Part shown: in pieces, positions 1 to 24,916 of the stretch
Position numbering within the stretch: the first letter of the stretch is position 1
How the letters are laid out: each line of letters begins with the position of its first letter
Position numbers and translations under genes: made by a program
Source: an uncultured Verrucomicrobiota bacterium
GTDB taxonomy: Bacteria > Verrucomicrobiota > Verrucomicrobiia > Palsa-1439
DNA: 64,000 bases
Direction of reading: 5' to 3'
NCBI GenBank assembly: GCA_964541945.1
Contig: CAZISE010000003.1
Span: forward strand, 115,649 to 179,648
The notes under the pieces: model-generated
What the model was told of the DNA's origin: nothing
The model's database searches: none
The model's input: only the letters and a program-made list of their open reading frames with translations

Positions 1-851
1 GTTTCCCCAAAGGATGATTGACGGGGACGAAACGGAATGCCGCGCCCGCGCGGCTGCGGAATGTACTCAACGGTGGGCTGACGCCGCACCGGTTGCGGAT
101 ACAACTCCATCAAATGCAGCATCTCCGGCGGCATCTCCTTGCGCACCGGCAACCCCAACGCCACGGCCCGTTCATAGGTAATCGGATAATCATGCGTCCA
201 CGTCCCGCTGGTCAACAACCGGGCAAGCTCTTCGGCTTTCTCCGCCGGAAACTTCTCCGCCAACAACTCCCGCACCTGCGCGTTCATCTGGTCAATCGCC
301 TTGCGCGCCTGATCGGCCAAAATCAATGTCTGATCCTCGATTTCCATCACCGGCTTCTGCTGTACGGCCGCCAGAATCGAGGCGGCCGGATATTGCCCCA
401 GTTGCGGGTCCACCGGCCCCAATACGGCGTGTTCGCACATGACAATCTCATCGGCCGCCAACGCGATCAACGTCCCGCCGCTCATCGCATAATGCGGCAC
501 GAACACGGTCACCTTGCCCTTGTGCCGTTGCAACGCCCGCGCAATCTGCGTGGACGCCAGCACCAGCCCGCCGGGCGTGTGCAACACAATGTCCAACGGC
601 AATTCGGGATCGGTCAGGTGAATCGCCCGGATGACCTCCTCCGAATCATTCACGTCAATGTACCGAAAAATCGGAAACCCCAGCAGACTCATCGTCTCCT
701 GCCGATGCACCAACAAAATCACCCGCGACTTGCGCTGCATCTCAATCCGCGCCAACAACCGCTGACGACTCGCCTCCAACAGCCGTTGCCGAATCACCGG
801 CTGCAACGCCGTCAACATGAAAAACACCCAAAACAACTGATTCACATCCAT
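1..851 (-). CDS. S49/SDH-family (ClpP-fold) serine peptidase, partial (C-terminus beyond window start)
   Basis: Hand translation of the minus strand from ATG at ~849-851 gives MDVNQLFWVFFMLTALQPVIRQRLLEASRQRLLARIEMQRKSRVILLVHRQETMSLLGFPIFRYIDVNDSEEVIRAIHLTDPELPLDIVLHTPGGLVLASTQIA. The HTPGG motif is typical of the SDH/S49 peptidase family. The listed + ORF 18..1610 is its low-complexity antisense shadow. Confidence 0.5.
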   Translation of the reverse strand, partial: MDVNQLFWVFFMLTALQPVIRQRLLEASRQRLLARIEMQRKSRVILLVHRQETMSLLGFPIFRYIDVNDSEEVIRAIHLTDPELPLDIVLHTPGGLVLASTQIARALQRHKGKVTVFVPHYAMSGGTLIALAADEIVMCEHAVLGPVDPQLGQYPAASILAAVQQKPVMEIEDQTLILADQARKAIDQMNAQVRELLAEKFPAEKAEELARLLTSGTWTHDYPITYERAVALGLPVRKEMPPEMLHLMELYPQPVRRQPTVEYIPQPRGRGIPFRPRQSSFGE

Positions 852-872
852 AACCATCCGCTCCTTTTCCGT

Positions 873-1628
873 TCAATCACGATAATGTCCCCACACCCAC
901 TTGTAACCGTACTCGTCCGGCTCAAATTTCCGATACCGACGCCGACGCGGCCGCCGAAACACCCAACACAACACCGCCCCCGCCACAAACCCACCCACAT
1001 GCGCCCACCACGCAATCCCACCCACATGTCCCGACGCGGCCAACGACAACGTGCCACTGAACAACTGAATCAAAAACCACCACCCCAGATACAGAAATGC
1101 CGAAATCTCAATGAAATACGGCAGGAAAAACAACGGCACCACCATGATGATCCGCGAACGCGGAAACCACAACAAATACGCCCCCATCACCCCGGAAATG
1201 GCGCCCGACGCCCCAATGCACGGCACCGTCGAACTCGGTTGACTGAAAAACTGCACCAGTCCCGCCGCCACACCGCACAACAGATAAAAAATCAGAAACC
1301 GGACCGGCCCCATCCGGTCCTCGACGTTGTCGCCAAAAATCCACAACGTCCACATGTTGCCGAGAAAATGCGTCCAACCGCCGTGCAAAAACTGATGCGT
1401 CAAAAACGGCCAGTAATCATCCACGGGAAACCCGACCCACGCCGCCCAATCGGGATGGGCGTACCGCGCCGGCACGATCCCGAACAAATAAAAAAACTGC
1501 TCCAACGACCGCTCCGACAACGTCAACTCGAAGAAAAACACCACCGCATTGACCAGAATCAGCCCCCGCGTCATCAGCGGCGTGTTCCGACTCGGAATCG
1601 TGTCGTGTAACGGGAACATGGCCGCCAT
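873..1628 (-). CDS. rhomboid family intramembrane serine protease
   Basis: 251 aa multi-TM protein with the catalytic GASGAISGVMGAY (GxSG serine) and AHVGGFVAGA (histidine) motifs of rhomboids (GlpG-like). Confidence 0.85.
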   Translation of the reverse strand: MAAMFPLHDTIPSRNTPLMTRGLILVNAVVFFFELTLSERSLEQFFYLFGIVPARYAHPDWAAWVGFPVDDYWPFLTHQFLHGGWTHFLGNMWTLWIFGDNVEDRMGPVRFLIFYLLCGVAAGLVQFFSQPSSTVPCIGASGAISGVMGAYLLWFPRSRIIMVVPLFFLPYFIEISAFLYLGWWFLIQLFSGTLSLAASGHVGGIAWWAHVGGFVAGAVLCWVFRRPRRRRYRKFEPDEYGYKWVWGHYRD

Positions 1629-1874
1629 TTTTAGCCGTTTTTCCCCCGTCTTTCAACCTCAATTCCACTCATCTGCCCCTTGGAGGAGTTGTTCTTGCCG
1701 CCAACCACCGGCCACCCTAGAATCGCCCGCCATGGCGACTGGAATCAAAACGCGACCACTACGGCGAATGACGCAGGCGGAACTGGACCTGTTCCTCGGA
1801 GAAGTCCCCAAGCTGCCGGTCGAAATCGTTGAGACCCGTGTGACAAAAAGACCTCAATCAGGGATTGATTCAGA

Positions 1875-4800
1875 ATGACCGAGAAACTTTTACGCGAAGG
1901 ACAAATCCTCAAAGGGCCGTTGTTCAACGAACCGGTGCGGGTCGAGACAGTAACGGTCAACGGAACGGATTCGTGGACGATCGGGTGCGTGGGGCTGCAC
2001 TCGGAAAAGTTCCGTCGCGTCACGCTTTCCGGGAATGACCTGAAATCGCTAACAATTCTTCCGGAGATTTTCACCTTCGACGGCAACGGGCGACAATTGC
2101 GGTTGGGCATTCAAGCCTACAGCTTGGGAATCGCCTACGAATTCGATCCGTACTTCGGCCTTTCGATCTCGCGAGTGGATCCGCTGCCACACCAACTGGA
2201 GGCGGTCTATGATTATTTGCTGAAACTGGCGCGTGTGCGTTTCCTGCTGGCCGACGACGCCGGTGCCGGCAAAACCATCATGGCAGGGTTGTTGATCCGC
2301 GAACTGAAACTGCGCGGCCTGGCGGAACGCATCCTGGTCGTTTGCCCGTCCAACCTCACGTTTCAGTGGCAGCGCGAGTTGAAAGAAAAATTCGACGAAA
2401 AGTTTCTCGTCATCAAAGGCGGCGACATCCGCGAACAGTTCGGCGTCAACCAGTGGATGGAACGCAACCAGGCCATTACATCGCTCGACCTCGCCAAACG
2501 CGCCGAAATTCTGCCCGGCCTGCGCCAGACCCACTGGGATTTGGTCATTGTGGACGAAGCGCATCGGATGTCGGCTGCGGATGAAACCCACAAGAGTCTG
2601 CGCTACAAACTGGGCGAATTACTCCGCGACAGCGCGGATCATTTGCTGCTGCTCACCGCCACCCCGCACAAGGGCGACCCGGTCAACTTCACCCTGTTCC
2701 TGCAACTGCTCGACGCCGATGCCTATGCGGATGTGCGATCCATCCGGCAGGCTATGACACAGCAACGCGCGCCGTTTTATTTGCGCCGCACCAAAGAGGC
2801 AATGGTCTATTTCCCCGAGCGGCAGCCGGACGGCAAATGGATGGCGCGGAAAATCTTCACAAAACGAATCACTCGCACGGTCGCTTTCATGCTCGATGGT
2901 CCTGAATTTGACTTGTACCGCGCCGTCACCGGGTTCATCAAGGCGCAGAGCGCAAAAGCCGCCGCCCAAGGCGATGATCTGCGAGCGCGGGCGGTCGGAT
3001 TCTTGATGTCGCTGTACCAACGACGACTGGCATCGAGCACCCATGCGCTCCGTCGTTCGCTGGAAAATCGCGCCAAACGCCTCGCCGACGCCCTGAAAAA
3101 TGCCCAGCAACTGGCCGCGCTGGCACCGCCAGAGGTACCCAGCGAAGAAGAACTCGAAGAAATGGAAGAATCCGAGCGTGAGCGGCTGGAGGAACAACTG
3201 GAAGCCGTCACGCTCGCCGGCAATGCCGAACAGGTGCGCGACGAGATCCATCAATTGAACGAACTGGCCGCCCAAGCCCGCGCCGTCGAGGAGACACTGG
3301 CCGAGGCCAAGCTGGCACGCTTGAAGGAACTGCTGCAGCAGGAAGGCTTCTTTGACCATCCCACCAAACGGTTGCTGATTTTCACCGAGTACAAAGACAC
3401 GCTCGACTATCTGATGGCACGACTCAAGGAGTGGGGGTTTAGCGTCGGATGCATCCACGGCGGCATGAAACCCGGTTCACGGGATGAACCCGGCACGCGC
3501 CTCCATGCCGAGCAACAATTCAAAGACGGCGTGATTCAAATCCTGGTTGCCACCGAGGCGGCTGGCGAGGGCATCAACCTTCAGTGCTGTCACATCCTGT
3601 TCAACTACGATATCCCGTGGAACCCCAACCGACTCGAACAACGCATGGGCCGCATCCACCGCTACGGTCAGCTCCACGACTGCCTCATCTTCAATTTCGT
3701 CGCCAGCAACACCATCGAAGGCCACGTCTTGCGCCGTCTCCTGGAAAAATTGCAGGAAATCCGCAACGCGCTCGACAACGACGCCGTGTTCAACGTCGTC
3801 GGCGAAGTTCTGCCCGCCGCTCACATCGAGCGGGTCTTGCGCGATTACTACGCCGGCAAACTCGGCGATGCCGACCTGGAAGATCGCTTGCTCCGCAATG
3901 TGGACGAGCAACATTTCCGCGCCATCTGCGAAAACGCCCTAGAAGGGCTGGCAGCCAAGAAACTCAACCTGGAAATGCTCATCGAACGCCGCGCACGCGC
4001 CCAGGAACGCCGCGTCGTCCCCGAAACCATCGCCCGTTTCCTGCGAGAAAGCGCCGAAACCGTGGCGCTCACCCTCAAACCCGTCGAGTCGCTACCGCAT
4101 ACTTTCGAAGGCATCAAGACGCCCACCGCGCTCAAGCGCTACGAGACCGACTCGACCTGGAAATTGCCGGTACTGGCCCTCAAATACCCGCGCCTCTCGA
4201 CCGACCGCGAGACCGCTGAAAAACACAATCTCGAATGGGTCACACCCGGTCACCCGTTGTTCGAGGCGTTACGCCGACACGCCCTCGAATCCGCCCGCGA
4301 ACCCTTCAGCAAGGGCGCGTGTTTCTACTCGCTCCAACACGATGCGCCCACCCGGCTCGATTTCTACCGCGCCCGCGTCGTGGACGGACTCGGCCAGGTT
4401 ATCCACGAACGACTGTATGCGGTCGAACTTTCTGAGACGGGCGCGCCCCGGCTGCGCGAGCCGGGCGTGATCGGCGACTTCGTGCCCGCCAACCCGCCGC
4501 CAATGTTGCCGGCGGTTGCCGAACTGCCTGAAGCAACCGCATGGTTCAACACGCAAGTGTTGACTGGTTTCCTCGAAGAAGTCCGCGTCGAACGCATTGC
4601 GGAGTTGGACCGTATCGCCAACCATGTCGAGTTGTCCCTGACCGAGCTGCTTCAGAAAGCCGACGAGGAAATCGGCAGGGCACAGGAGGCCATTGATCGT
4701 GGCGAACAAGGTGCCGAGGGGCGCCTGGCGCAGGCCGAAGAACGACACGACAAGTTACTCCAACGCCGCGAGCAACGCCGCCAGGAACTGCAACAGCAGC

Positions 4801-5300
4801 GCTCCCTGACCTTGCAAAGCGTCGAACGAATCACCTCCGTCCTCATCCTGCCTCACCCGGAACGACAAGCCGCCGATGTGGCTCATCTGCGGCCTAACCC
4901 GCAAACCGAAGCCGCAGCCATGCAAACCGTGATCGCCTACGAACGCAACCACGGCCGACACGTCGAGGACGTGCACGAGAAAAATCTCGGCTACGATTTG
5001 ACCAGCCTCGACCCGCAGTCCGGCGAACTGCGCCTGATTGAGGTCAAGGGACTGGGCGCTGCCAGCGGTCGCGTCCTGCTCACACCCAACGAACGGCGCG
5101 TCGCCGAGGATCGGCGCGATTGTTACTGGCTGTATGTCGTTACCCACTGCGACACCACGCCGCAGTTGCAGGAGCCGATCAAGGACCCGGCTCGGTTCCC
5201 GTGGCACGTGGTCAGCAAGGTTGAGCATTACTGGCTGGAAGTGAAAGCCCTGACCCAACCCATGCAGGTGCGGGAAACGCCCGAAGGCTACCACCCATGA
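1875..5300 (+). CDS. SNF2-family (DEAH) helicase/ATPase with C-terminal DUF3883 domain; first gene of defence-like operon
   Basis: ATG start. Walker A DAGAGKT, DEAH box VIVDEAHRM, motif III LLLTATPHKGD, helicase-C ILVATEAAGEGINLQ and QRMGRIHRYGQ. The C-terminal ~120 aa (VIAYERNHGRHVEDVHEKNLGYDLTSLDPQSGELRLIEVKGLGAASGRVLLTPNERRVAEDRRDCYWLYVVTHC) matches the DUF3883/NO-VEIN C-terminal signature. Confidence 0.85.
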   Translation: MTEKLLREGQILKGPLFNEPVRVETVTVNGTDSWTIGCVGLHSEKFRRVTLSGNDLKSLTILPEIFTFDGNGRQLRLGIQAYSLGIAYEFDPYFGLSISRVDPLPHQLEAVYDYLLKLARVRFLLADDAGAGKTIMAGLLIRELKLRGLAERILVVCPSNLTFQWQRELKEKFDEKFLVIKGGDIREQFGVNQWMERNQAITSLDLAKRAEILPGLRQTHWDLVIVDEAHRMSAADETHKSLRYKLGELLRDSADHLLLLTATPHKGDPVNFTLFLQLLDADAYADVRSIRQAMTQQRAPFYLRRTKEAMVYFPERQPDGKWMARKIFTKRITRTVAFMLDGPEFDLYRAVTGFIKAQSAKAAAQGDDLRARAVGFLMSLYQRRLASSTHALRRSLENRAKRLADALKNAQQLAALAPPEVPSEEELEEMEESERERLEEQLEAVTLAGNAEQVRDEIHQLNELAAQARAVEETLAEAKLARLKELLQQEGFFDHPTKRLLIFTEYKDTLDYLMARLKEWGFSVGCIHGGMKPGSRDEPGTRLHAEQQFKDGVIQILVATEAAGEGINLQCCHILFNYDIPWNPNRLEQRMGRIHRYGQLHDCLIFNFVASNTIEGHVLRRLLEKLQEIRNALDNDAVFNVVGEVLPAAHIERVLRDYYAGKLGDADLEDRLLRNVDEQHFRAICENALEGLAAKKLNLEMLIERRARAQERRVVPETIARFLRESAETVALTLKPVESLPHTFEGIKTPTALKRYETDSTWKLPVLALKYPRLSTDRETAEKHNLEWVTPGHPLFEALRRHALESAREPFSKGACFYSLQHDAPTRLDFYRARVVDGLGQVIHERLYAVELSETGAPRLREPGVIGDFVPANPPPMLPAVAELPEATAWFNTQVLTGFLEEVRVERIAELDRIANHVELSLTELLQKADEEIGRAQEAIDRGEQGAEGRLAQAEERHDKLLQRREQRRQELQQQRSLTLQSVERITSVLILPHPERQAADVAHLRPNPQTEAAAMQTVIAYERNHGRHVEDVHEKNLGYDLTSLDPQSGELRLIEVKGLGAASGRVLLTPNERRVAEDRRDCYWLYVVTHCDTTPQLQEPIKDPARFPWHVVSKVEHYWLEVKALTQPMQVRETPEGYHP

Positions 5301-6118
5301 CATCCGACCGATCAGACCGATCCGACCAATCTGACCGATCACCGCGCAAGCGCCTCCGACCCAGCGGCGGTTACCGCAACACCGCCAGTTTCCAGACCGC
5401 CACGATCATCTACGATGCCACCTACTGGTTCTGCGAAAAGTTCCTCGACCCGCGTTCGCGCACGGTGGACCAGATGGTGCAAGCCGCGCGCAGTGGCCGG
5501 CAAAACATTGCCGAAGCCAGCCGCGCCGCCGCCGCTTCTTCACAGACCGAGCTGCGCCTGCTCAACACCGCCCGCGCCAGCCTCGAGGAGCTGCTGCTGG
5601 ACTACGAAGATTACCTGCGCCACCGCCACCTGCCACAATGGTCGCCCGACAACCCCGAAGCGCGCGCCGTGAGGGACCTGGCGGCGCGAATGCGCCGCCA
5701 ACGCGACCAGTCTGATCAGTCCGATCCGCCTGATCCGCCTGATCAGCAGTACCGCGCGCTCTGGGCGCTCTACGCCCCGTGGCTGGAGCACGCCGACCCG
5801 GCCGTTCGCGCCAACGCGCTGATCTGCCTCATCCACCAAGCCAATTACCTGCTCGACCAGCAAATCAACGCGCTGGAGCAGGCCTTCGTGGAAGACGGCG
5901 GCTACAGCGAGCAACTCGCCGCCGCTCGGCTGGCGCACCGCGCCAAGCGCGATCAGACCGATCAGACCGATCAGGCCGATCCGTCCGATCGCATCCCCCG
6001 TTGCCCCCAATGCGGCAAGCTGATGGCGCTGCGCACCGCCAAAACCGGCAAAAAAGCCGGCAGCCAGTTCTGGGGCTGCACCGGCTACCCCGATTGCAAA
6101 GGAACCGCCCCACTATGA
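5297..6118 (+). CDS. small four-helix-bundle (PF05635-like) protein fused to a topoisomerase-type C4 zinc ribbon; contains three 9-bp repeat arrays
   Basis: The ATG overlaps the helicase stop (ATGA) and the stop overlaps the methylase start (ATGA). The 4HB-like segments are YRNTASFQTATIIYDATYWFCEKF, QMVQAARSGRQNIAEASR and ARASLEELLLDYEDYL. The C-terminal segment CPQCGKLMALRTAKTGKKAGSQFWGCTGYPDCKGT matches zf-C4_Topoisom. SDRSDRS/DQSDQSDPPDPPD/DQTDQTDQADPSD insertions come from the 9-mer arrays. Confidence 0.6.
   Translation: MTSDRSDRSDQSDRSPRKRLRPSGGYRNTASFQTATIIYDATYWFCEKFLDPRSRTVDQMVQAARSGRQNIAEASRAAAASSQTELRLLNTARASLEELLLDYEDYLRHRHLPQWSPDNPEARAVRDLAARMRRQRDQSDQSDPPDPPDQQYRALWALYAPWLEHADPAVRANALICLIHQANYLLDQQINALEQAFVEDGGYSEQLAAARLAHRAKRDQTDQTDQADPSDRIPRCPQCGKLMALRTAKTGKKAGSQFWGCTGYPDCKGTAPL
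5303..5341. repeat. 9-bp GATC-containing tandem repeat array 1 (4 units, consensus TCNGACCGA/GACCGATCN), in-frame, encodes (SDR)n
   Basis: Units tccgaccga / tcagaccga / tccgaccaa / tctgaccga read directly from sequence, at the helicase/small-gene junction. Confidence 0.8.
5705..5746. repeat. 9-bp GATC tandem repeat array 2 (about 4 units), encodes DQSDQSDPPDPPD
   Basis: tctgatcag / tccgatccg / cctgatccg / cctgatcag. Inserted in the middle of the four-helix-bundle domain. Confidence 0.8.
5951..5992. repeat. 9-bp GATC tandem repeat array 3 (4.5 units), encodes DQTDQTDQADPSD
   Basis: gatcagacc / gatcagacc / gatcaggcc / gatccgtcc / gatcgc. Sits between the 4HB domain and the Zn ribbon. Confidence 0.8.
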
Positions 6119-9108
6119 TCCCTCGCAACTGTAAACGACTCGCCGAACTCGATTTCCCCATCGCCACTGTGGGAAAACATGCGATTCGAGAGAAGCCAAT
6201 TGTTCGTAACCATCCACAGTCAATCCAGCAATGGTGGGCACGCCGGCCTCTCGCGGCTTGCCGGGCCGTGCTGCTCGGCCTGCTGTTGCCCGACCCGGCC
6301 GATCCGCTCTGCCCGGCGGAGTTCAAGAGCAAAGCGCGCGAGCTGCTCCGCAAAGTGCCCGGCCGACTCGGCAACACCGACCTCGACCTGCGCAATGCGC
6401 TGCTGAAGTTCATCGGCGATTTCGCCAACTGGGAACTTTCCTCGCACGCCACTTACCTCGAAGTCGGGCGCGGCCTGGTCAAAGCGGCTCACCCGGAAGA
6501 ACCGCCGCTTGTGGTTGACCCGTTTGCCGGCGGCGGCTCGATCCCGCTGGAAGCGTTGCGGCTCGGGTGCGAAGCGTTTGCCTCCGACCTCAACCCCGTT
6601 GCCTGCCTGATCCTGAAGGTGATGCTTGAAGATATTCCCCGGCACGGCCCGCAACTGGCCGAGGAACTGCGGCGTGTCGGCGCGCAAATCAAGGCGGCGG
6701 CCGAACGCGAATTGGCGCAGTATTACCCGGCGGATCCGGATGGGGCGCGGCCGATTGCCTACCTGTGGGCGCGGACGGTGCGGTGCGAATCGCCGCAGTG
6801 CGGCGCCGAAATCCCGCTGGTGCGCTCGTTCTGGCTCTGCAAAAAGACCGACCGCAAACGGGCGCTGCGCCTGGTGCGAGCCGACCGATCCGACCGATCG
6901 GACGGATCCGACCGATCCGTTCGATTCGAGCTGTTCACCCCTGCCCGCGATGACGAGGTGCCGCCCGGCACGGTCTCACGCGCCAATGCAACCTGCCCGT
7001 GTTGCGGTGTGGTGTTGCCGGCGGCGCGGGTGCGGGCGCAACTGGCCGCCCAACGCGGCGGCGCCGATGTGCTCTTTGACGAGCGCGGGCGACGAATCGG
7101 CGGTGCGCGGCTGCTGGCGGTGGTGACACTCAAGGACGGCGAGCCGGGCCGACACTACCGGCTGGCCACCGACCGCGATTACGAACCGGTCTGGCTAGCC
7201 CAACAAGCCGTCGCCCAACTCCCACCCGGCACCGTGCCGGATGAGCCAACGCCCGCCGGTGGCGGGGCAGGAGCAGGCCGCGCCTTCAGTGTCCAACGCT
7301 ACGGCATGCTCCAGTGGGGCGACCTCTTCACCGCCAGACAAAAACTAACTTTGGCTACTCTGGGATCGCTCGTGGGCAGACTGGAAAATGAGATTCATCG
7401 CAAACTTGTGGCATTCGTTCTTTCACGCCTTTCGGATCGACTTGCATCATTGCTCGGCTGGGACGTGGGGGGGGAGAAGTTAGGGCATGTATTTAACAGA
7501 CAAGCGCTCCCAATTGTGTGGGATTACACCGAAGGAGCACCCTTTGCCGACGCGAGCGGGAGCTACCAGAACGTTAAGGAACAAATTGAGGGTGCCGTTG
7601 ACTCTGTTAGTTCCCTCACCCGATCAGGACAAGCCCAAATTGCCGACGCCTGTGCCTCGCCCTTGCCGGATGATGCCTGCAGCGTCTGGTTCACCGATCC
7701 GCCCTACTACGATGCCGTGCCGTATGCCGATCTGTCGGATTTCTTCTTTGTCTGGCTGAAGCGGACATTGCCGGGTCATCCGTTGTTGCGTGACCCGTTC
7801 GACCCGGCCAACCCGCTGACGCCAAAAACACGCGAAGCGGTGCAGGACGAAGTCAAAGAAGCCGACGGTCGCCCGAAGGACAAGGGATGGTTTGAAGAAA
7901 CGATGGCCAAAGCGTTTGCCGAAGGCCGGCGCGTGCTCAAGGACGACGGCATCGGTTGTGTCGTGTTCGCCCACAAAACCACCGAAGGCTGGGAAGCGTT
8001 GTTGTCGGGCATGATCCGCGGCGGCTGGACAATTACCGGTTCGTGGCCGATTGCCACCGAGCGGCCGGGACGGCTGCGCTCGCAAGCGTCCGCTGCACTG
8101 GCGACCAGCGTCCATCTGATTTGCCGGCCGCGCACGGACGACGCGGTGGGCGATTGGAGCGCCGTGTCGCGTGAACTGCCGCAACGTGTGCGGGATTGGA
8201 TGGAGCGGTTGGAGCGTGAAGGCGTGCGCGGTGCTGACCTGGTGTTTGCCTGCATTGGTCCTGCGCTGGAGATTTACAGCCGCTACGCCAAAGTGGTGGA
8301 CGCCGAAGACCGGGAAATCCCGTTGGGCGGCGACTCCGAAGCGCGCGAGCCGCATCGGCGCGGTTTTCTGGCTTACGTCTGGGAAGTGGTCGGCCGCATT
8401 GCGCTGGAGCAGGTGCTCGGCAGCGCCGAAGCACGCGCCACCAACGGCGTTGCCGGCGCGCTGGAAGAAGACGCCCGGTTGACCGCGCTGTTTCTCTGGG
8501 CGCTGCAAACCACTGCCGGCGATCCGCCCGATCTGACCGATCCGACCGATCCGCCCGATCCGTCCGATCAGGAGGAAGAGGAAGCCCCCAAACCTGCGCG
8601 CGGGTTCTCGCTGGTCTTCGACGTGGTGCGCCGGTTCGCCCAGCCGCTGGGGATTCACCTGCCGGACTGGGAAGGGCGGATCATCGCCACCGAGAAAGGC
8701 GTGGTGCGGCTGTTGCCGGTGCATGACCGGGCCGAGCAGTTGTTCGGCAAAGAGGGCGCGCAGGCGATTGCTTCCCGGCTGGAACGGGAAACGCAAGGCG
8801 ACGCGCAGTTGGTGTTGTTCCCCGACCGGCAAGAGGCCGCCGCGCCGCGGGTGCAGGGCCGGCGCCGGCGTAGTCGCGGCGAGGAGGCCGTTGCCACGCA
8901 GCGTGCCGCGACGACGCTGGATCGGGTGCACGCGGCGATGCTGTTGCAGGCCAGCGGCAAGTCGAATGCGTTGCGGGCGATGTTGCAAGCTGAGCGCGAG
9001 CGCGGTCCGGAGTTTCTGCGCTTGGCGAACGCGCTCTCAGCGTTGTATCCTCGCGACAGCGAGGAAAAACGGCTGCTGGACGCCATGCTATTGGCCATGC
9101 CCCGCTAA
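6115..9108 (+). CDS. DUF1156-family Zn-ribbon N6-adenine/N4-cytosine class DNA methyltransferase (DPPY motif)
   Basis: The true start is ATG at 6115 (M I P R N C), overlapping the upstream stop. The listed 5779 start is a frame-overlapping extension. The DUF1156 N-terminus is FPIATVGKHAIREKPIVRNHPQSIQQWWARRPLAACRAVLL. SAM motif I is VVDPFAGGGSIPLEALRLGC and catalytic motif IV is WFTDPPYYDAVPY. The Zn ribbon is CESPQCG...CPCCG. It contains two 9-mer arrays. Confidence 0.8.
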   Translation: MIPRNCKRLAELDFPIATVGKHAIREKPIVRNHPQSIQQWWARRPLAACRAVLLGLLLPDPADPLCPAEFKSKARELLRKVPGRLGNTDLDLRNALLKFIGDFANWELSSHATYLEVGRGLVKAAHPEEPPLVVDPFAGGGSIPLEALRLGCEAFASDLNPVACLILKVMLEDIPRHGPQLAEELRRVGAQIKAAAERELAQYYPADPDGARPIAYLWARTVRCESPQCGAEIPLVRSFWLCKKTDRKRALRLVRADRSDRSDGSDRSVRFELFTPARDDEVPPGTVSRANATCPCCGVVLPAARVRAQLAAQRGGADVLFDERGRRIGGARLLAVVTLKDGEPGRHYRLATDRDYEPVWLAQQAVAQLPPGTVPDEPTPAGGGAGAGRAFSVQRYGMLQWGDLFTARQKLTLATLGSLVGRLENEIHRKLVAFVLSRLSDRLASLLGWDVGGEKLGHVFNRQALPIVWDYTEGAPFADASGSYQNVKEQIEGAVDSVSSLTRSGQAQIADACASPLPDDACSVWFTDPPYYDAVPYADLSDFFFVWLKRTLPGHPLLRDPFDPANPLTPKTREAVQDEVKEADGRPKDKGWFEETMAKAFAEGRRVLKDDGIGCVVFAHKTTEGWEALLSGMIRGGWTITGSWPIATERPGRLRSQASAALATSVHLICRPRTDDAVGDWSAVSRELPQRVRDWMERLEREGVRGADLVFACIGPALEIYSRYAKVVDAEDREIPLGGDSEAREPHRRGFLAYVWEVVGRIALEQVLGSAEARATNGVAGALEEDARLTALFLWALQTTAGDPPDLTDPTDPPDPSDQEEEEAPKPARGFSLVFDVVRRFAQPLGIHLPDWEGRIIATEKGVVRLLPVHDRAEQLFGKEGAQAIASRLERETQGDAQLVLFPDRQEAAAPRVQGRRRRSRGEEAVATQRAATTLDRVHAAMLLQASGKSNALRAMLQAERERGPEFLRLANALSALYPRDSEEKRLLDAMLLAMPR
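6883..6927. repeat. 9-bp GATC tandem repeat array 4 (5 units), encodes DRSDRSDGSDRSVRF inside the methylase Zn-ribbon region
   Basis: gaccgatcc / gaccgatcg / gacggatcc / gaccgatcc / gttcgattc. Confidence 0.8.
8521..8571. repeat. 9-bp GATC tandem repeat array 5 (5.5 units), encodes DPPDLTDPTDPPDPSDQ linker in the methylase
   Basis: gatccgccc / gatctgacc / gatccgacc / gatccgccc / gatccgtcc / gatcag. It uses a different codon phase (DPT) from arrays 1 and 4 (DRS). Confidence 0.8.
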
Positions 9109-9110
9109 AA

Positions 9111-9155
9111 CCGATCCGCCCGATCCGACGGATCCGACTGATAGGACTGATCATG
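9111..9155. repeat. 9-bp GATC tandem repeat array 6 (about 5 units) filling the methylase–ATPase intergenic spacer and running into the ATPase start codon
   Basis: ccgatccgc / ccgatccga / cggatccga / ctgatagga / ctgatcATG. Non-coding except for the last unit. Confidence 0.75.
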
Positions 9156-11906
9156 GAACCCTGGTACAAAATCGTGACGCCGCGCAAAGAAGTCCGGGAG
9201 GGACGATCGTTCAACCCGGACGATTTTGCCATTCATCTGGAACAGGTCGTGGCGGGCAAAGCGCCGGAGGATTACCGGGATGCCCGGCAGTTTTTCGCGC
9301 GGACATGCTGGACGAGCGCCCTGCGCTTGCACGCCGGCATGGTTCTCCGCCGACTGGACGGCAAAACCGAGAACACCTCCCCGGTGATGACGTTGGTGAC
9401 ACAGTTCGGCGGCGGCAAAACCCACACGCTGACGGCGTTGTATCACCTGGCCACAAGCGGCAAAAAAGCCGCCAGCTACCACGGAGTCGAGGACTTGCTC
9501 AAGGAAGCCCGGCTTAGCGAAGTGCCGCAAGCGCGGGTCGCCGTGTTCGTGGGCAACGCCTGGGATCCGCACGAGGGACGCGAGACGCCGTGGATGGATG
9601 TTGCCCGGCAACTGGCGGGCGAGAAGGGCGTAGCATTGCTCGGCAAAGACGCCAAGACCACACCGCCCGGCACCGAGGCGTTGGGCCGGATTTTTGAGGC
9701 GGCCGGCGGGCCGGTGTTGATTCTGTGCGATGAAGTGCTGAATTTCGTCAACCGACATCGCAAACTGGCTGAGCCGTTCCACGCCTTTATCCAGAACCTG
9801 ACGGTCGCCATGACCGGCACGACGCACGGGGCGGCGATGATCAGCCTGCCACGCAGTCAGGTGGAGATGACCGAGTGGGATGCGCAGTGGCAGGACAAGA
9901 TCACCAAGGTCGTTAAACGGGTTGCCAAGGATTTGATTGCCAACGACGAGACGGAAATCAGCGAGGTGGTGCGTCGGCGGTTGTTCGAGGACTTGGGCGA
10001 CGAAAAGATTCTCAAGACGGTGGCCCGAACGTTTGCCCATTGGTGTTTCGAGCGTCGGGCGCAGTTGCCGCCCGAATGGACGGCGGTGGACGTGGCAGCG
10101 ACGGAAGCGAAAGCGAAAGAGTTTTTGCGAAATCGGTTTGAGCGTTGTTATCCGTTTCATCCAGCCACGTTGTCGGTATTTCAGCGCAAATGGCAGACGC
10201 TGCCGCAGTATCAACAGACCCGTGGCACGCTGGCGATGCTGGCGCAGTGGATTTCGTGGGCCTACCGGAACGGGTTCCAACACGCTCGACGCGAGTCGTT
10301 GATCACCATCGGCTCGGCGCCGTTGGATGTGGCGGAGTTCAAGGCGACGGTGTTGGGTCAACTCGGCGAAGCGCGACTGGCGGCGGCGATTGATACCGAT
10401 ATTGCCGGACCGAACTCGCACTGCCGGGCGCTGGATGCCGACACCCGCGGGCCGCTGCGCGACATTCACCGTCGGGTCGGCACAGCGATTCTGTTCGAGT
10501 CGTCAGGCGGCCAGGTCAACCGGGTGGCGCATTTGCCGGAGTTACGGTTTGCCATCGGCGAGCCGGACGTGGAAACAACCTCGGTGGATAACGCGGCGCA
10601 TGCGTTGGAAGCGCGGGCGTTTTTCATCAGCCGGGTCGGCTCGGACGGCTTCCGCATCTATCACAAGGCGACGATCCGAAAGGCGGTGGGCGACCGTCGG
10701 GCGTCGTTGGACGAGGACAGCGAGATCAAACCGGCGATGCGCAAGCTGGTGGAGACGGAGTTTCGGCGGGGAGCAACCGTGCCGCTGGTGCTGTTTCCCG
10801 CGGATGGCAGCGAAGTGCCGGATTCGCCGCGATTGACCGTGGTGGTGCTGGCTCCCGAAACGGAATGGAGCGGGCAGAACCCATTGCGCGCACAGATCGC
10901 CGAGTGGACGAAGCGGCGGGGCAAATCGGATCGGTTGTATCCGGCGGCGTTGGTGTGGTGCGTGAAAAAGCCCGGCCGAGATTTTCGCGAAAAGGTGGAG
11001 TTGTGGCTGGCGTGGAAACGAGTGGCACGGGAAGTGGCCGACGGCACGCTGGGGGCGGATTACGATAAAGCCGACCGGGCAGAGATTGAGGCCAAGGTTC
11101 GAGCTGCCGAAGAGGAAGCCAAAGACGAAGTTTGGGGCAGCTACCGGTATGTGATTGTAGCGGATGGAACGGAAACCGACGGCCTGAAGGTGATTGATCT
11201 CGGTGCCGGTCACGCCAGTAGCCATGAGACGTTGAGTGGACGGGTGATCCTCGCGTTGAAAACGCAAAGCTTGCTCAACGACTCGGTCGGGGCCGGTTAC
11301 CTCGAACGCAACTGGCCGGCGGCGTTGAAGGAGACGGGTGCATGGCCGTTGTCGGGCTTGCGCCAGAGTTTCCTCAACGGATCGCTGACGCGGCTCCTCG
11401 ATCCCGACGCCGTGCTGCGCGGCAAGATTCCCGAATTCGTGGCCCGGGGCGAGTTCGGTCTCGCTTCCGGGCCGAAACCGGACGGCACCTACGAAACCGT
11501 TTGGTTCGAGCAGCCGATTTCAGCGGATGAAGTCATGTTCGAGCCGAATGTGTTCCTGCTGACCAAAACAAAAGCCAGGGCGCTAAAATCCGGTGCGACA
11601 ACGGTGGTGGTTGTCCCACCCGAATCGCCGAAACCTTCGGAACCGCAACCGAAGCCGGAGCCGGGCAAGGAATCAGGCCCGGCGCAACTGGTGATGTTGA
11701 CCCTCAGTGGCAGTGTGCCACCAGAGGTCTGGAATCGGCTCGGCACCAAAATCCTGCCCAAGCTGAAAACCGGCAACAACCTCAAGGTGGACGTCGCTTT
11801 CACCGTAACCGTCAAAGCCGATGTCGCCAAAAGTCTGCGGCCAGACTTGCAGCAGAGTCTCAATGACCTCGGGATCTCCGACAAAGTGCGGATTTCGGAA
11901 AACTGA
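9153..11906 (+). CDS. DUF499-family P-loop ATPase (defence-associated); last gene of the operon
   Basis: 917 aa. The Walker A region is VMTLVTQFGGGKTHTLTALYHL, which I recognise as the DUF499 signature. There is a Walker B-like LILCDEV. The long C-terminal region lacks other recognisable domains. Confidence 0.75.
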   Translation: MEPWYKIVTPRKEVREGRSFNPDDFAIHLEQVVAGKAPEDYRDARQFFARTCWTSALRLHAGMVLRRLDGKTENTSPVMTLVTQFGGGKTHTLTALYHLATSGKKAASYHGVEDLLKEARLSEVPQARVAVFVGNAWDPHEGRETPWMDVARQLAGEKGVALLGKDAKTTPPGTEALGRIFEAAGGPVLILCDEVLNFVNRHRKLAEPFHAFIQNLTVAMTGTTHGAAMISLPRSQVEMTEWDAQWQDKITKVVKRVAKDLIANDETEISEVVRRRLFEDLGDEKILKTVARTFAHWCFERRAQLPPEWTAVDVAATEAKAKEFLRNRFERCYPFHPATLSVFQRKWQTLPQYQQTRGTLAMLAQWISWAYRNGFQHARRESLITIGSAPLDVAEFKATVLGQLGEARLAAAIDTDIAGPNSHCRALDADTRGPLRDIHRRVGTAILFESSGGQVNRVAHLPELRFAIGEPDVETTSVDNAAHALEARAFFISRVGSDGFRIYHKATIRKAVGDRRASLDEDSEIKPAMRKLVETEFRRGATVPLVLFPADGSEVPDSPRLTVVVLAPETEWSGQNPLRAQIAEWTKRRGKSDRLYPAALVWCVKKPGRDFREKVELWLAWKRVAREVADGTLGADYDKADRAEIEAKVRAAEEEAKDEVWGSYRYVIVADGTETDGLKVIDLGAGHASSHETLSGRVILALKTQSLLNDSVGAGYLERNWPAALKETGAWPLSGLRQSFLNGSLTRLLDPDAVLRGKIPEFVARGEFGLASGPKPDGTYETVWFEQPISADEVMFEPNVFLLTKTKARALKSGATTVVVVPPESPKPSEPQPKPEPGKESGPAQLVMLTLSGSVPPEVWNRLGTKILPKLKTGNNLKVDVAFTVTVKADVAKSLRPDLQQSLNDLGISDKVRISEN

Positions 11907-11970
11907 TACTGAGCGCCCCGAGGTATGGGCGGCAGTCTTGAGCATGCAGCGTGTCCGCGATGATCGCACT

Positions 11971-14400
11971 CTACCGGTGGCCGGTCAGCGCCACATGGAG
12001 GACGTCGTCCACGGTTTCGACGGGGATCAGTTTTAGTTTGGCACGGGCGTCGGCAGGGATGTCGGGCAAATCCTTTTCGTTGTGTTTGGGGATGATGACC
12101 GTTTTGATGCCGGCCCGCAACGCCGCCAGGCTCTTCTCTTTCAAGCCGCCAATCGGCAACACCAAGCCGCGCAAGGTGATTTCGCCGGTCATCGCCACGT
12201 CGGCGCGAACCGGCCGATCGCTAAACAGCGACGCAATCGCCGTGAACATCGCCACACCCGCCGACGGGCCATCTTTCGGCACGGCACCGGCCGGGACGTG
12301 GATGTGGAGGTCGGTGTCTTTGAAGGCATCGGGTTCAATGCCGAGTTCTTTGGCGCGGGCTTTGACCAGACTCAAGGCGGCTTGAGCACTTTCTTTCATC
12401 ACGTCGCCAATCTGGCCGGTCAGCAGGATGTTGCCCTTGCCGGGGTAACGAATGGCTTCGATGTGCAGAATGTCGCCGCCGGTCGGTGTCCACGCCAGGC
12501 CGGTGACGACGCCGGGTTTGCTGGTGGCGAGTTTGGTTTCGCGGATGTACTTGGGCGGGCCGAGGATTTTCTCGACTTCCGTCGGGGTGATGGTTGTTTC
12601 GGTGATTTCGTTGCGAGCGACGCGGGCAGCGACGGCGCGGCAGATGGCGGCGATCTGGCGTTCGAGTTCGCGCACGCCGGCTTCGCGGGTGTAATCGTCA
12701 ATGATCCGGCGCAGGGCAGCCGTCTCGAATTTGCACTGGCCGTTTTTGAGTCCGTGTTCTTTGAGCTGGCGTTTGACCAGATAGCGGCGGGCGATTTCGA
12801 GTTTCTCGCGGTCGGTGTAGCCGGGCAATTCGATGACTTCCATGCGGTCGCGGAGCGCGGGCGGGACGGTGTCCATCATGTTGGCGGTGCAGATGAACAT
12901 GACCTGCGACAGATCAAACGGCACATCGAGGTAATGATCGTTGAAGGTGTTGTTCTGGCGCGGGTCGAGCACTTCGAGCAGCGCGCTGGCCGGGTCGCCG
13001 CGGAAATCGGCGCCGACCTTGTCAATTTCGTCGAGCATCAGGACCGGGTTTCGGGAACCGCAACGCCGGATTTCCTGGATGATGCGGCCCGGCATGGAGC
13101 CGATGTAGGTGCGGCGGTGGCCGCGGATTTCGGCTTCGTCATGGACACCGCCGAGCGACATGCGGGCGAACTTGCGGCCGAGGGCGTCGGCGATGGATTG
13201 GCCGAGGGAGGTTTTGCCGACGCCGGGCGGGCCGAGGAAACAGAGGATCGGGCCGTGACCGGTCGGGTTGAGTTTGCGGACGGCGAGGTATTCGATGAGG
13301 CGGCGTTTGACTTTTTCGAGGTCGTAATGGTCGCGGTCGAGGATTTTCTGGGCGCGGTCGAGGTCGAGGTTGTCGGTGGTGAGTTTGTTCCAGGGCAGTT
13401 CGGCGATGGTTTCGACGTAGCTGACGATGACGGCGTATTCGGGGCTGGCCGGATGGAGGTGACCGAGCCGGCGCAATTCGCGTTCGGCCTGTTCCATGAC
13501 GGCGGCGGGCGGGGCGGCTTCTTCGAGTTTTTTGCGAAGATTGGCGATTTGTTCTTCGACGCCGCCTTCGGCTTCGCCGAGTTCTTTTTGGATGGCGCGG
13601 AGTTGTTCGCGCAGGACGACTTTGCGTTGTTGGTCGCCGAGTGAGGAGGAGACATCTTTTTGGATTTTCTGCTGGAGGCGTGCGATTTCGAGCTGGCCGG
13701 TGACGGCGCGGAGCACGCCGCGGACGCGTTTGGGGATGTCGAGTTCTTCCAGCAACGCTTGTTTTTGGGGCACATCGAGGTTGATGCTGCCGGCGAGGAA
13801 ATCGGACAGCGCGCCGGGGTCTTCGATGTTGAGGATGACCATTTTGACCGGCTCGGATTCTTCGAGGGTCAGTTCGACGAGTTTCAGCGCGGAGTCGCGC
13901 AGGCCCTGGACGGCGGCTTCAAATTCCTTGTCGCCGGTGGGGGCGGGTTTGGATTCCAAGGGCTGAACTTCGGCGCGCAAATAGGGTTGGGTGGCCAGCA
14001 CGCGGCGCAGGGCGACCCGTTGGATGGCTTGCACAACCACGACGAGTTGGTCGGGGGATGGCCGCAACAGTTTCAACACCGTGGCGGCCACGCCGACGGG
14101 ATAGATTTCTTCGGGTGTTGGGTCGTCGGTTTTGGGGTCTTTCTGGGCGAAGACGCCGATGATTTTGTTTTGTGGGAGGGTGTCCTCGATCAACTGGCGC
14201 GAGCCGGGCCGGCCGATGGTCAGCGGGGTAACCATGCCGGGGAACAGGACGGTGTTGCGGATGGGCAGGATCGGCAACGCGCGCGGCAACCCGCTGGACG
14301 GTTCGGTTTCGGGCGACGACGGCGCGGCGTTATCGTTCGTCGCGCCGGGCGGCGGCGTGTCGGAGGCGACCGGGAAGGTGAAATACGGGGAGAGGCTCAC
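11971..14400 (-). CDS. lon: ATP-dependent protease Lon
   Basis: Lon N-domain LPILPIRNTVLFPGMVTPL, AAA+ Walker A GPPGVGKTSLGQSIA, protease serine PKDGPSAGVAMFTAIASL. The ORF extends to 14463, but a GTG at 14398-14400 overlaps the upstream Hsp20 stop (GTGA) and sits just before the conserved N-domain. The start is therefore uncertain (14400 or 14463). Confidence 0.85.
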   Translation of the reverse strand: MSLSPYFTFPVASDTPPPGATNDNAAPSSPETEPSSGLPRALPILPIRNTVLFPGMVTPLTIGRPGSRQLIEDTLPQNKIIGVFAQKDPKTDDPTPEEIYPVGVAATVLKLLRPSPDQLVVVVQAIQRVALRRVLATQPYLRAEVQPLESKPAPTGDKEFEAAVQGLRDSALKLVELTLEESEPVKMVILNIEDPGALSDFLAGSINLDVPQKQALLEELDIPKRVRGVLRAVTGQLEIARLQQKIQKDVSSSLGDQQRKVVLREQLRAIQKELGEAEGGVEEQIANLRKKLEEAAPPAAVMEQAERELRRLGHLHPASPEYAVIVSYVETIAELPWNKLTTDNLDLDRAQKILDRDHYDLEKVKRRLIEYLAVRKLNPTGHGPILCFLGPPGVGKTSLGQSIADALGRKFARMSLGGVHDEAEIRGHRRTYIGSMPGRIIQEIRRCGSRNPVLMLDEIDKVGADFRGDPASALLEVLDPRQNNTFNDHYLDVPFDLSQVMFICTANMMDTVPPALRDRMEVIELPGYTDREKLEIARRYLVKRQLKEHGLKNGQCKFETAALRRIIDDYTREAGVRELERQIAAICRAVAARVARNEITETTITPTEVEKILGPPKYIRETKLATSKPGVVTGLAWTPTGGDILHIEAIRYPGKGNILLTGQIGDVMKESAQAALSLVKARAKELGIEPDAFKDTDLHIHVPAGAVPKDGPSAGVAMFTAIASLFSDRPVRADVAMTGEITLRGLVLPIGGLKEKSLAALRAGIKTVIIPKHNEKDLPDIPADARAKLKLIPVETVDDVLHVALTGHR

Positions 14401-14831
14401 GTGGCATGCTCCTGGGCGGGATGAATGGTTTGGGCGGGCCGGGCCAACGGCAGCGTGATCCACAACAGCCCGTCACGATATACCGCCGTCACCCGCTCGG
14501 CGTCCACCGAATGCGGCAGTTCCAGCGCCCGTTCAAACGGGCCGTAATCAATCTCCATCATCAGCAACCGGGCCGCGCGTCCTTCCTGGGGCGGCGGTTC
14601 GGGCGCGGGGCGTGTGCCCGAAACGATCAGGCGCCGCGCCTCGACGCGCACGGAAATGTCTTTGCGATCCATGCCGGCCAGATCGAAACAGATGACAAAT
14701 CGGTCGTGGAGCCGGTAGGCATTGACGGCGGGCCGCCACTGGGCGGTGGCGCTGAACGCGCCGAGCGCGCCGCGGCGTAGTTCCGCGGCCAGGCGGTTCA
14801 TTTCCGCGTGGAGCCGTTCAAATTCATTCAT
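14397..14831 (-). CDS. Hsp20/alpha-crystallin small heat-shock protein
   Basis: This is the C-terminal 145 aa of listed ORF 14397..15539, starting at ATG ~14829-14831 (MNEFERLHAEMNRL...). The alpha-crystallin domain is WRPAVNAYRLHDRFVICFDLAGMDRKDISVRVEARRLIVSG...GLLWITLP. The start overlaps the MarC stop (ATGA). Confidence 0.8.
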   Translation of the reverse strand: MNEFERLHAEMNRLAAELRRGALGAFSATAQWRPAVNAYRLHDRFVICFDLAGMDRKDISVRVEARRLIVSGTRPAPEPPPQEGRAARLLMMEIDYGPFERALELPHSVDAERVTAVYRDGLLWITLPLARPAQTIHPAQEHAT

Positions 14832-15472
14832 GACGCACCTCCTCCGGCGATCAGGCCGAGCGATTGCAGGGCATTGATGGCAAACTGTACCGCCACTGCC
14901 GCCAACAGCAGTCCCATCAGGCGCGTGACCAGCCGCATTGCCAGCGGGCTGAGCTGACGCGCGCCGCGGGCGGCCACCGCCAATATGACATAACTGGCGG
15001 CGGCCACCAACCCGATACTGACAAACAACGCCGCGCGTTGGGCCATGGTTTGGGCCTGGTGCATGAGAATCAACGCGGTCGAAATCGCGCCCGGTCCGGC
15101 CAGCATCGGCACGGCCAGCGGCGTGATCGCGATGTCGTCCTTGGCCGCGCCGGCGTCGCGTTCCTCGTCGGTTTCCCGCGCGGCGGAACGGCGAGCGTAC
15201 AACATGTCCAACGCGATCCGCAGCAACAACAGGCTGCCGGCAATCTGGAAAGCGGGCAACGTGATGCCCAGAAACCGGAAAATCCACGGCCCGGCCAGCG
15301 CGAACACCGCCAGCACGCCCGCCGACACGACGGCAGCCAGCCGCGCCATCCGCAGCCGGTCGGCGGTGGAATCGGTCGGCGTCATGGCCAGAAAAGCCGG
15401 CACGGCCGCGATCGGGTCCACAATCACGAACAGCGAACTGACGGCCAGCAGACTGTACTCGACCAGTGTCAT
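14828..15472 (-). CDS. MarC-family (UPF0056) integral membrane protein
   Basis: 214 aa, six predicted TM segments. Family-typical stretches are LFVIVDPIAAVPAF and AITPLAVPMLAGPGAIST. Confidence 0.75.
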   Translation of the reverse strand: MTLVEYSLLAVSSLFVIVDPIAAVPAFLAMTPTDSTADRLRMARLAAVVSAGVLAVFALAGPWIFRFLGITLPAFQIAGSLLLLRIALDMLYARRSAARETDEERDAGAAKDDIAITPLAVPMLAGPGAISTALILMHQAQTMAQRAALFVSIGLVAAASYVILAVAARGARQLSPLAMRLVTRLMGLLLAAVAVQFAINALQSLGLIAGGGAS

Positions 15473-15653
15473 CCGAATTCCTTTTCGCCGCTCTACCGCT
15501 CTGCCGCGCGGCTCGTTTCTTCCCTCCCATGATTACCAAAAAAACGCCGCGATCACCAACGGTTTTGACCGGCGCGGGACGACCACTCTCGTCGTCCGTT
15601 CATGACCACGGCGAACAAGCAGCCGGTGCGCTCCGCTCTTTTTGTTCCCATCT

Positions 15654-17050: not shown

Positions 17051-17111
17051 GCGATCCCCTCCTTTTTCTCCGTCGGGACGCGATGGGCGCTGATTCGATT
17101 TCCTCGTTTCG

Positions 17112-19417: not shown

Positions 19418-19500
19418 CACGATTTCACCTCCAGTCGAAAACGCGCGGAAAATTACCTCTTGCCGCCGGTTCCTTCGCGCCGAAGGAAACCGGCGGCACA

Positions 19501-24907: not shown

Positions 24908-24916
24908 GCGGGCACC

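Follow-up and report, generated by a model that had tools for sequence, protein, structure and literature searches.

Hma, a three-gene candidate system composed of a helicase, a methylase, and an ATPase, is widespread and has been found in 26 phyla (Payne et al. 2021, PMC8565338). A January 2026 survey in Nucleic Acids Research renamed the trio the 'Type-1 DUF499-centred BREX-related system' and modeled it as an ORC/Cdc6-like ATPase, a methylase with a target-recognition insert, and a helicase-nuclease effector (PMC12839542). Halomonas HmaA alone protects Escherichia coli from T4, and this protection requires the metal-dependent nickase activity of its NOV_C PD-(D/E)xK domain (Liu et al. 2024, PMC11232893). 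Extra genes between the hma genes are a published feature of 63-66% of Hma loci, with the hmaA-hmaB junction as an embedding hot spot; most of the embedded cassettes that have been tested are autonomous defenses, which are common outside Hma too. Here, we describe a four-gene operon in a 64,000-nucleotide (nt) stretch of DNA, which we refer to as the window, from an uncultured Verrucomicrobiota bacterium (GenBank assembly GCA_964541945.1, contig CAZISE010000003.1, positions 115,649 to 179,648). Profile searches identify the operon as a Hma system, alias a Type-1 DUF499-centred BREX-related, restriction-modification (R-M)-like system, with one embedded gene. Going forward, we refer to this embedded gene as X and focus on its association with 9-nt repeat arrays that contain GATC.

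Genes 1, 3, and 4 of the operon match the PADLOC models of HmaA (E = 5.4e-175, residues 9-1091 aligned), HmaB (E = 1.2e-101), and HmaC (E = 7.6e-98, residues 1-787 aligned), and together with X they are arranged at one locus in the order A-X-B-C, all on the plus strand, with the co-directionality of Hma. In Pfam, gene 1 contains SNF2-rel_dom (8.5e-17), Helicase_C (1.4e-25), and NOV_C, formerly DUF3883 (2.3e-21); gene 3 contains DUF1156 (2.4e-16) plus weak methylase matches; and gene 4 contains DUF499 (3.7e-13). NCBIfam agrees with Pfam and PADLOC on the core identity. HmaC is a DUF499 AAA+ ATPase of the ORC/Cdc6-like type, and the predicted catalytic motifs of HmaA, HmaB, and HmaC are intact (Table 1).

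A preliminary description of this DNA, made from the letters of the window alone, had proposed the same domains, and our hidden Markov model searches bear out all four assignments, placing the large proteins in DUF3883 (NOV_C), DUF1156, and DUF499. Its prediction of an R-M-like module, in which the methylase marks self and the helicase-nuclease acts as effector, is in line with current publications, and it correctly set the small gene and the GATC arrays apart from the usual description of the cassette. Its claim that no characterized system has such a composition is outdated because the trio is the published Hma system, and the biochemistry that it thought was lacking had already been published as the nickase activity and T4 defense of HmaA (PMC11232893). 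The linkage between X and the arrays beyond Hma, which is the main subject here, was missed.

Linkage between gene X and the 9-nt arrays

The array unit is GATCNGACC, 9 nt in length. Tandem Repeats Finder places 9-nt arrays at 5302-5341, 5704-5744, 5950-5990, 6877-6919, 8520-8569, and 9110-9142, and finds no arrays of this unit elsewhere in the 64-kb window. The pattern GATC-N5-GATC-N5-GATC has 12 matches in the window, all within 5714-9134, versus 0.00 expected from shuffles; the arrays pointed out in the preliminary description are real and far beyond chance. The last array lies in the spacer between hmaB and hmaC. If the hmaB frame is read past its TAA (9106-9142), this spacer array would give NRSARSDGSD before the next stop, as if the hmaB stop had truncated a C-terminal repeat tail. 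We also considered array copy number as a contingency locus, but no difference in array length was seen between the window and L001, a set of contigs from a strain that is ~95% nucleotide-identical to the window and carries the same operon at the same place.

Across loci, the arrays track X. Triple GATC at 9-nt spacing was found in 61 of 85 loci with X and in none of 81 loci without it. Array density is 1.12 per kb within X and 0.41 within 0.5 kb of X, and then declines to 0.061, 0.025, 0.017, and 0.006 per kb farther out to 10 kb (0.006 at 5-10 kb); density is zero in 849 kb of Hma loci that lack X. The same association is seen at the protein level, as runs of at least three D-x-S/T are present in HmaB from all four independent X-bearing operons versus none of 36 X-free ones, and never in HmaA or HmaC. 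The alignment shows that the HmaB arrays replace the same two loops at about equal length, namely the zinc-ribbon hairpin loop and part of the acidic linker, and two Nitrospira operons have two further arrays in HmaB. Outside Hma, arrays are located at the M-S junction of fused HsdM-S in Type I loci, and in the type III CRISPR-Cas locus L008, DPSDPSD-type arrays are found in Cas10/Cmr2 (amino acid [aa] 833), a RAMP protein (aa 256), and a Cas_NE0113/Csx protein (aa 198). Altogether, in the sequences sampled, the small gene X and the arrays go together as a single phenomenon, one that is by no means confined to Hma.

This linkage could have arisen if X and the 5' part of hmaB moved as one module, with the arrays gained once. 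Such a single co-transferred module fails to explain it because X-bearing HmaB sequences have X-free ones as their nearest relatives when the segments are compared one at a time; this is the case for the first 191 residues and three other segments, and the array-bearing segment alone groups the X-bearing sequences together.

The order hmaA, X, hmaB, variable embedded genes, hmaC recurs in Limisphaera ngatamarikiensis and in Nitrospira metagenome-assembled genomes (MAGs), where X overlaps both of its neighbors and the four proteins share 65-80% identity with their counterparts in the window. The genes embedded between hmaB and hmaC in these operons include PDDEXK_3, DUF2283, and DUF8426 (L004, 13902-15788) and a nucleotidyltransferase/HEPN pair (L005, 13957-14695); in the window, this junction consists of the 44-nt spacer with an array only. 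X was found in none of 80 further metagenomic Hma loci obtained with an HmaB profile search, many of which belong to the same clade (HmaA 66-77% identical). Of 40 such X-free loci, 9 have a tight hmaA-hmaB junction, and the other 31 carry different inserts there, 0.3-7.3 kb in size. The X-bearing operons are scattered among X-free ones in neighbor-joining trees of HmaA and HmaC, which implies that X was gained, or lost, repeatedly.

To survey the contexts of X itself, we sampled 80 genome loci from an X profile search, only about five of which are Hma. About a quarter of the copies adjoin defense genes, usually in the order helicase or restriction gene, X, methylase gene. At least seven loci have a Type I HsdR upstream and a fused HsdM-S downstream; other copies have a PLD-SNF2 helicase upstream and an Eco57I-like methylase downstream, and one copy is inside the type III CRISPR-Cas locus of a Verrucomicrobiaceae MAG (L008, 2483-15061). 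Many copies are located beside ordinary housekeeping genes, with no defense partner. On plasmids, we found one distant solitary copy, from a Prevotella replicon. A tblastn search of 50,697 phage records returned topoisomerase zinc ribbons only; X is absent from these records, and we therefore rejected the idea that it is a phage anti-defense gene. Since most X loci are non-Hma and most Hma loci are X-free, X appears to be a rider that strongly prefers the junction between restriction-type and modification-type genes rather than a core Hma subunit. A separate observation concerns a Planctomyces MAG (L059, 9682-9935), in which a 254-nt non-coding array with 28 GATC is located 72 nt upstream of X, with stop codons between the two in the reading frame of X.

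Gene X, the variable hmaB segment, and the genomic setting

The domains of X are recognizable by several methods. Pfam matches include Zn_ribbon_Top1 (1.7e-9) and the 23S_rRNA_IVP four-helix bundle (2.5e-5, under the Pfam cut-off), and the protein matches NCBIfam TIGR04258 ('four helix bundle suffix domain', 73.7 bits) and TIGR02436, both over the curated cut-offs. An AlphaFold model of X (pLDDT 76) has a four-helix bundle at residues 30-138, three helices at 148-223, and a zinc ribbon at 235-270, joined by low-confidence linkers that are encoded by the repeats. The zinc ribbon matches those of Top3-alpha, Top1, and the GRF fingers of APE2/NEIL3. Zinc ribbons of this type are single-strand-DNA-binding modules.

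No PADLOC family matches X at E <= 0.01, whether HEC-01 to HEC-09 or the other PADLOC systems, and neither PF05635 nor 'four helix' appears in the survey supplements that we searched. For the X family, the literature search turned up only a paper on diversity-generating retroelements (DGRs), which mentions PF05635 as Avd-like. As far as the searched literature shows, X and its arrays are so far undescribed. The family is large, with >7,990 clusters at 90% identity that match X but only 294 clusters at 50% identity that match with E <= 1e-30. The window protein shares 73-92% identity with members from Verrucomicrobiota, Nitrospirota, Acidobacteriota, Gammaproteobacteria, and others, and identity within the family is 60-90% across at least ten phyla. 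X is under strong purifying selection, and its translational coupling is kept precise.

The methylase gene differs between strains in one place. HmaA and HmaC of the window share 97% identity with their L001 counterparts, whereas HmaB shares 86.5% at the protein level, and nucleotide identity is 50-74% in 7200-7700 compared with a background of 90-100%. The corresponding segment, aa 362-528, is also the most divergent part of the alignment among HmaB homologs. In this methylase class, the target-recognition insert has the same position (PMC12839542). The difference between the strains at 7198-7698 thus looks like a swap of the target-recognition (specificity) domain. This suggests, without proving it, that HmaB marks self DNA in a sequence-specific way and that the system is active and diversifying; the swap is useful evidence for HmaB as a sequence-specific, diversifying methylase. 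The idea that arrays form the borders of the swapped segment is not supported, as the 7200-7700 block is not flanked by arrays in the window.

The preliminary description had the layout of the operon right. ORF calls and direct reading of the sequence confirm four coupled genes on the same strand between a rhomboid gene and lon, with ATGA start/stop overlaps at 5297-5300 (hmaA/X) and 6115-6118 (X/hmaB) and a 44-nt spacer (9109-9152) between hmaB and hmaC. Its label of 'defense island' does not fit, since heat-shock, proteostasis, and housekeeping genes surround the operon, and a scan of ten large open reading frames (ORFs) in 17-64 kb of the window found housekeeping genes, including dnaA, and no defense gene. 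This setting agrees with the published remark that Hma is usually located away from other defenses. The proteostasis cluster around the operon (1-20000) comprises the rhomboid gene, Lon, HSP20, MarC, S30AE, and an HtrA-like protease. We did not find a clean empty site for the operon: related Verrucomicrobia (L167-L170) have the Lon/HSP20/rhomboid cluster without Hma, in rearranged order. The host, an uncultured member of the Verrucomicrobiota, is related to Limisphaera, and its Lon is 74-78% identical to Lon of Limisphaera species.

The sigma-70-like sequence upstream of hmaA (Table 1) is a consensus match only and weak evidence for a promoter, and the promoter and terminator scans gave no more sites than expected from shuffled sequence. 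Rfam and ARAGORN yielded a tRNA-Gln (33822-33895) as the sole match in the window, and no known RNA family or tRNA inside the operon. Farther along, dnaA (35256-36629, minus strand) has short tandem repeats just upstream (36759-36970, in the region 36630-37047); the replication origin probably lies in this region, which is ~24 kb away from the Hma operon. The window also encodes two large hybrid histidine kinases of 631 and 1313 aa with PAS/GAF and receiver domains (22380-28858), which are unrelated to the operon.

Table 1. Positions in the window of the operon genes, their domains and motifs, the 9-nt arrays, and the flanking features.
Feature	Position	Strand	Description or evidence
Rhomboid gene	873-1628	-	Divergent flank; Pfam
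Sigma-70-like promoter match	1695-1723	+	Upstream of hmaA; 9/12 positions
hmaA (gene 1)	1875-5300	+	ORF, 1141 aa
hmaA GAGKT	2262-2276	+	Motif (GAGKT130)
hmaA DEAH	2553-2564	+	Motif (DEAH227)
hmaA Helicase_C	3309-3668	+	Pfam
hmaA NOV_C	4908-5168	+	C-terminal PD-(D/E)xK nuclease domain; Pfam
hmaA nuclease motif D-L-T-S-L-D	4995-5012	+	Motif
hmaA nuclease motif I-E-V-K-G	5037-5051	+	Motif
X (gene 2)	5297-6118	+	ORF, 273 aa
Array 1	5302-5341	+	Read as SDRSDRSDQSDRS; N-terminus of X
X Avd-like four-helix bundle	5384-5710	+	R-S-G-R-Q-N-I-A-E at 5489-5515
Array 2	5704-5747	+	Read as DQSDQSDPPDPPD; linker between four-helix bundle and suffix domain of X
X three-helix 'suffix' domain	5738-5965	+	NCBIfam TIGR04258; AlphaFold model
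Array 3	5946-5990	+	Read as DQTDQTDQADPSD; linker between suffix domain and zinc ribbon of X
X C4 zinc ribbon	5999-6112	+	Top1/Top3/GRF kind; Pfam Zn_ribbon_Top1
hmaB (gene 3)	6115-9108	+	ORF, 997 aa from ATG at 6115
hmaB DUF1156	6154-6324	+	N-terminus; Pfam
hmaB motif I FAGGG	6523-6537	+	N6-adenine methyltransferase motif (FAGGG137)
hmaB zinc ribbon CESPQC	6784-6801	+	Motif
Array 4	6877-6919	+	Read as DRSDRSDGSDRS; in hmaB, replaces zinc-ribbon hairpin loop
hmaB zinc ribbon CPCC	6994-7005	+	Motif
hmaB hypervariable segment	7198-7698	+	aa 362-528, between motifs I and IV; putative target-recognition domain
hmaB motif IV DPPY	7696-7707	+	Motif (DPPY528)
Array 5	8520-8569	+	Read as DPPDLTDPTDPPDPSD; in hmaB, replaces part of acidic linker before C-terminal helical region
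Array 6	9110-9142	+	Non-coding; in spacer between hmaB stop and hmaC start
hmaC (gene 4)	9153-11906	+	ORF, 917 aa
hmaC Walker A FGGGKTH	9405-9425	+	Motif (aa 85-91)
hmaC Walker B-like LILCDE	9717-9734	+	Motif
lon	11971-14463	-	Convergent flank; Pfam

Explanations for gene X and its arrays

Arrays that lie within genes could be maintained for their DNA or for the peptide that they encode, and we infer that they are primarily a DNA-level feature that travels with X. Two frames of a single unit are used, GAT-CNG-ACC and TCN-GAC-CGA, which give DPT and SDR. Non-coding arrays, in any frame, are located directly before and after X, and also after the hmaB stop. The D-x-S/T runs of 120 X homologs comprise 497 repeats, of which 466 (94%) have P, R, L, or Q in the middle position; these residues are a chemically mixed set and are exactly the amino acids of CNG codons. 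GATC is twice as dense in X as in the flanks of X, and GAT is preferred before codons that start with C, with only a mild bias toward CGA-TCN codons.

Combining the locus with what is known of the family, we consider with good confidence that the best overall explanation is a Hma operon with a rider, X, and with X-linked arrays at the DNA level. In this explanation, HmaB would methylate adenine in a motif read by aa 362-528, marking self DNA; HmaC would scan or sense DNA and assemble the complex; and HmaA would translocate on DNA and nick unmodified invader DNA via its C-terminal PD-(D/E)xK domain. X would have entered the hmaA-hmaB junction several times, and would ride also in Type I R-M, PLD-SNF2/methylase, and type III CRISPR-Cas loci, or alone. 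Its protein is probably an oligomeric nucleic-acid binder, in which an Avd-like bundle would carry flexible arms that end in single-strand-DNA-type zinc ribbons. The repeat would be propagated and homogenized at the DNA level near X, and the arrays would seed into nearby DNA; inside genes, they may survive only in disordered loops, in frames that give harmless D-x-S/T peptides. Our preferred reading of the arrays themselves, which is a guess, is that they are cis sites on DNA or transcript that X uses.

Several points weigh against this explanation. Every coding array is in the D-x-S/T frame, which fits the DNA and peptide models alike. The divergent X lineages L080 and L085 have 9-nt arrays that are free of GATC (unit GACAGGTCA) and still encode D-R-S, which argues for some constraint at the peptide level. 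Over-expression of Halomonas HmaB left T4 sensitivity unchanged, and HmaA acted alone in a manner resembling abortive infection (PMC11232893); because HmaA works alone and HmaB is without effect there, R-M logic is not established even for the Hma family. For the window locus, what we say on methylation, restriction, and a role of X derives from sequence analysis throughout. The HmaA and HmaC trees are neighbor-joining trees without support values, the sample of X-bearing Hma operons is small (4-5 independent loci), and the contexts of X were annotated for immediate same-strand neighbors only.

In L080 (1-1221 and 3330-3361) and L085 (3584-3622 and 6820-6846), X is 46-48% identical and is flanked by long 9-nt arrays. 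Their units, GACAGGTCA or GACCCGTCA, lack GATC and encode D-R-S or D-P-S, and one array is located in the kinase-receiver linker of a neighboring sensor protein. Since the arrays of both lineages are free of GATC, we rejected GATC as the sole constraint as a general rule.

Four other explanations were weighed. HmaA matches the DrmD and BrxH models at 1e-120 to 1e-98, HmaB weakly matches PglX, and common ancestry with Type-3 BREX has been argued in the 2026 survey (PMC12839542), so the operon might be a misfiled BREX or DISARM member and no separate system. This is very improbable. PglZ, of the alkaline-phosphatase family, and BrxA/BrxB, by which BREX is recognized, have no match among the four proteins or the flanking genes, and BrxL is likewise missing in and beside the operon; DISARM is recognized by DrmA (a DUF1998 partner), DrmB, and DrmC (PLD) with the SNF2 helicase DrmD, and the first three are absent, while HmaA is DrmD-like with a score below the NCBIfam cut-off (354.7 versus 610 bits). 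The Hma-specific models also score far higher. The remaining explanations concern X. It might be an independent single-gene defense or abortive-infection module at the Hma hot spot, like Septu or the HEC candidates, with the arrays as incidental low-complexity linkers. The autonomy of most tested Hma-embedded cassettes and their occurrence outside Hma would fit, as would the facts that X is mostly found outside Hma, that about a quarter of its copies are beside defense genes, and that it is absent from phage genomes. We nonetheless give this explanation little credence: X has no recognizable effector domain, just a helical bundle and a zinc ribbon, it has no PADLOC match, and the presence of arrays in neighboring genes only where X is present, and their decay with distance, would be left unexplained.

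We regard it as rather improbable, too, that X is an adaptor or regulator of ATP-dependent restriction-type complexes that binds D-x-S/T tags on itself, HmaB, HsdMS, and Cas10, with selection acting on the protein. Arrays in the partners are always in frame and at surface loops or linkers (HmaB loops, the HsdM-S junction, Cas10, RAMP, Csx), the GATC-free lineages keep D-R-S, and X is translationally coupled to both neighbors. However, 94% of the x residues are P, R, L, or Q, the chemically mixed set given by CNG codons, arrays are also present in non-coding DNA in any frame, and many X copies have no defense partner. A further possibility is that X and the arrays are a selfish element that parasitizes defense loci and contributes nothing to Hma, in which case the arrays would be recombination or insertion sites or a by-product of spread. 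The family is very tight and abundant, in the cluster numbers given above and with 60-78% identity across phyla; the gain of X is polyphyletic, and the arrays flank X and decay with distance. The bundle domain also has relatives that reside in 23S rRNA intervening sequences, and such sequences have been described as selfish elements (PMC4990558). Such an element seems unlikely, if less so than an adaptor, as domains of a transposase, integrase, or nuclease are absent from X, neither terminal inverted repeats nor target duplications came to light, the array positions do not bound the swapped hmaB segment, and X is under strong purifying selection with precise translational coupling.

A more far-reaching reading is that X and the 9-bp GATC arrays are an undescribed element that colonizes prokaryotic defense loci, among them Hma, Type I R-M, PLD-SNF2/methylase, and type III CRISPR-Cas, and that writes or spreads its repeat into linkers encoded by adjacent defense genes. 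X would then be either a common accessory factor, with the arrays acting as cis sites on DNA or RNA or as peptide tags, or a new kind of selfish passenger of immune operons. The probability that we give to this reading is somewhat below even. The core operon is one more Hma system and nothing new, and the value of the locus is in the rider: a protein of ~270 residues, with thousands of public copies, that lodges between genes of the restriction type and of the modification type and is accompanied by a DNA repeat that invades adjacent defense proteins. Should X act through the arrays, unrelated immune systems would have a regulatory or accessory layer in common; should it be selfish, defense operons would have a passenger of a new type, one that takes advantage of their embedding hot spots. 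X would extend the 'guilt-by-embedding' catalog.

Comparison with known systems

The operon resembles described Hma systems in having the same three proteins in the same order and orientation, matched end to end by the family-specific models, and in carrying an embedded gene between hmaA and hmaB; roughly two thirds of Hma loci have embedded genes. It differs in that the embedded gene encodes a four-helix-bundle/zinc-ribbon protein outside the PADLOC models and the searched supplements, and in that HmaB has 9-nt repeat arrays, which X-free relatives lack. HmaC of the window is also without the N-terminal HEPN domain that, according to the survey, is present in more than half of Type-1 systems (PMC12839542). 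Type-3 BREX (BrxC, PglXI, BrxHII) is similar in its homologous ATPase, adenine methylase, and SNF2 helicase and in its logic of methylation-based self-marking; unlike Type-3 BREX, the window operon does not have PglZ, BrxA, or BrxB, and its helicase has what looks like an active PD-(D/E)xK nuclease.

The family of Avd (accessory variability determinant of DGRs), S23p, and the 23S rRNA intervening sequences shares the four-helix bundle with X, which adds the 'suffix' helical domain and the zinc ribbon. In contrast to Avd, X is found in defense operons without an adjoining reverse transcriptase or a template/variable repeat pair; in the window, its neighbors are hmaA and hmaB, and no reverse transcriptase domain was found in the operon or its flanks. 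The Avd of a DGR is encoded beside a DGR reverse transcriptase and such a repeat pair. In-frame repeats have precedents, including the 12-bp tandem repeat in the R-M specificity gene hsdS of EcoR124I and two types of repeat elements, the Rickettsia palindromic elements and the cyanobacterial STRR heptamers. As with the arrays described here, these are short repeats that are propagated at the DNA level and tolerated in coding linkers and loops. The X arrays are distinct from them in being tied to one neighboring gene across phyla, in having GATC at a 9-bp period, and in occurring in several unrelated defense proteins.

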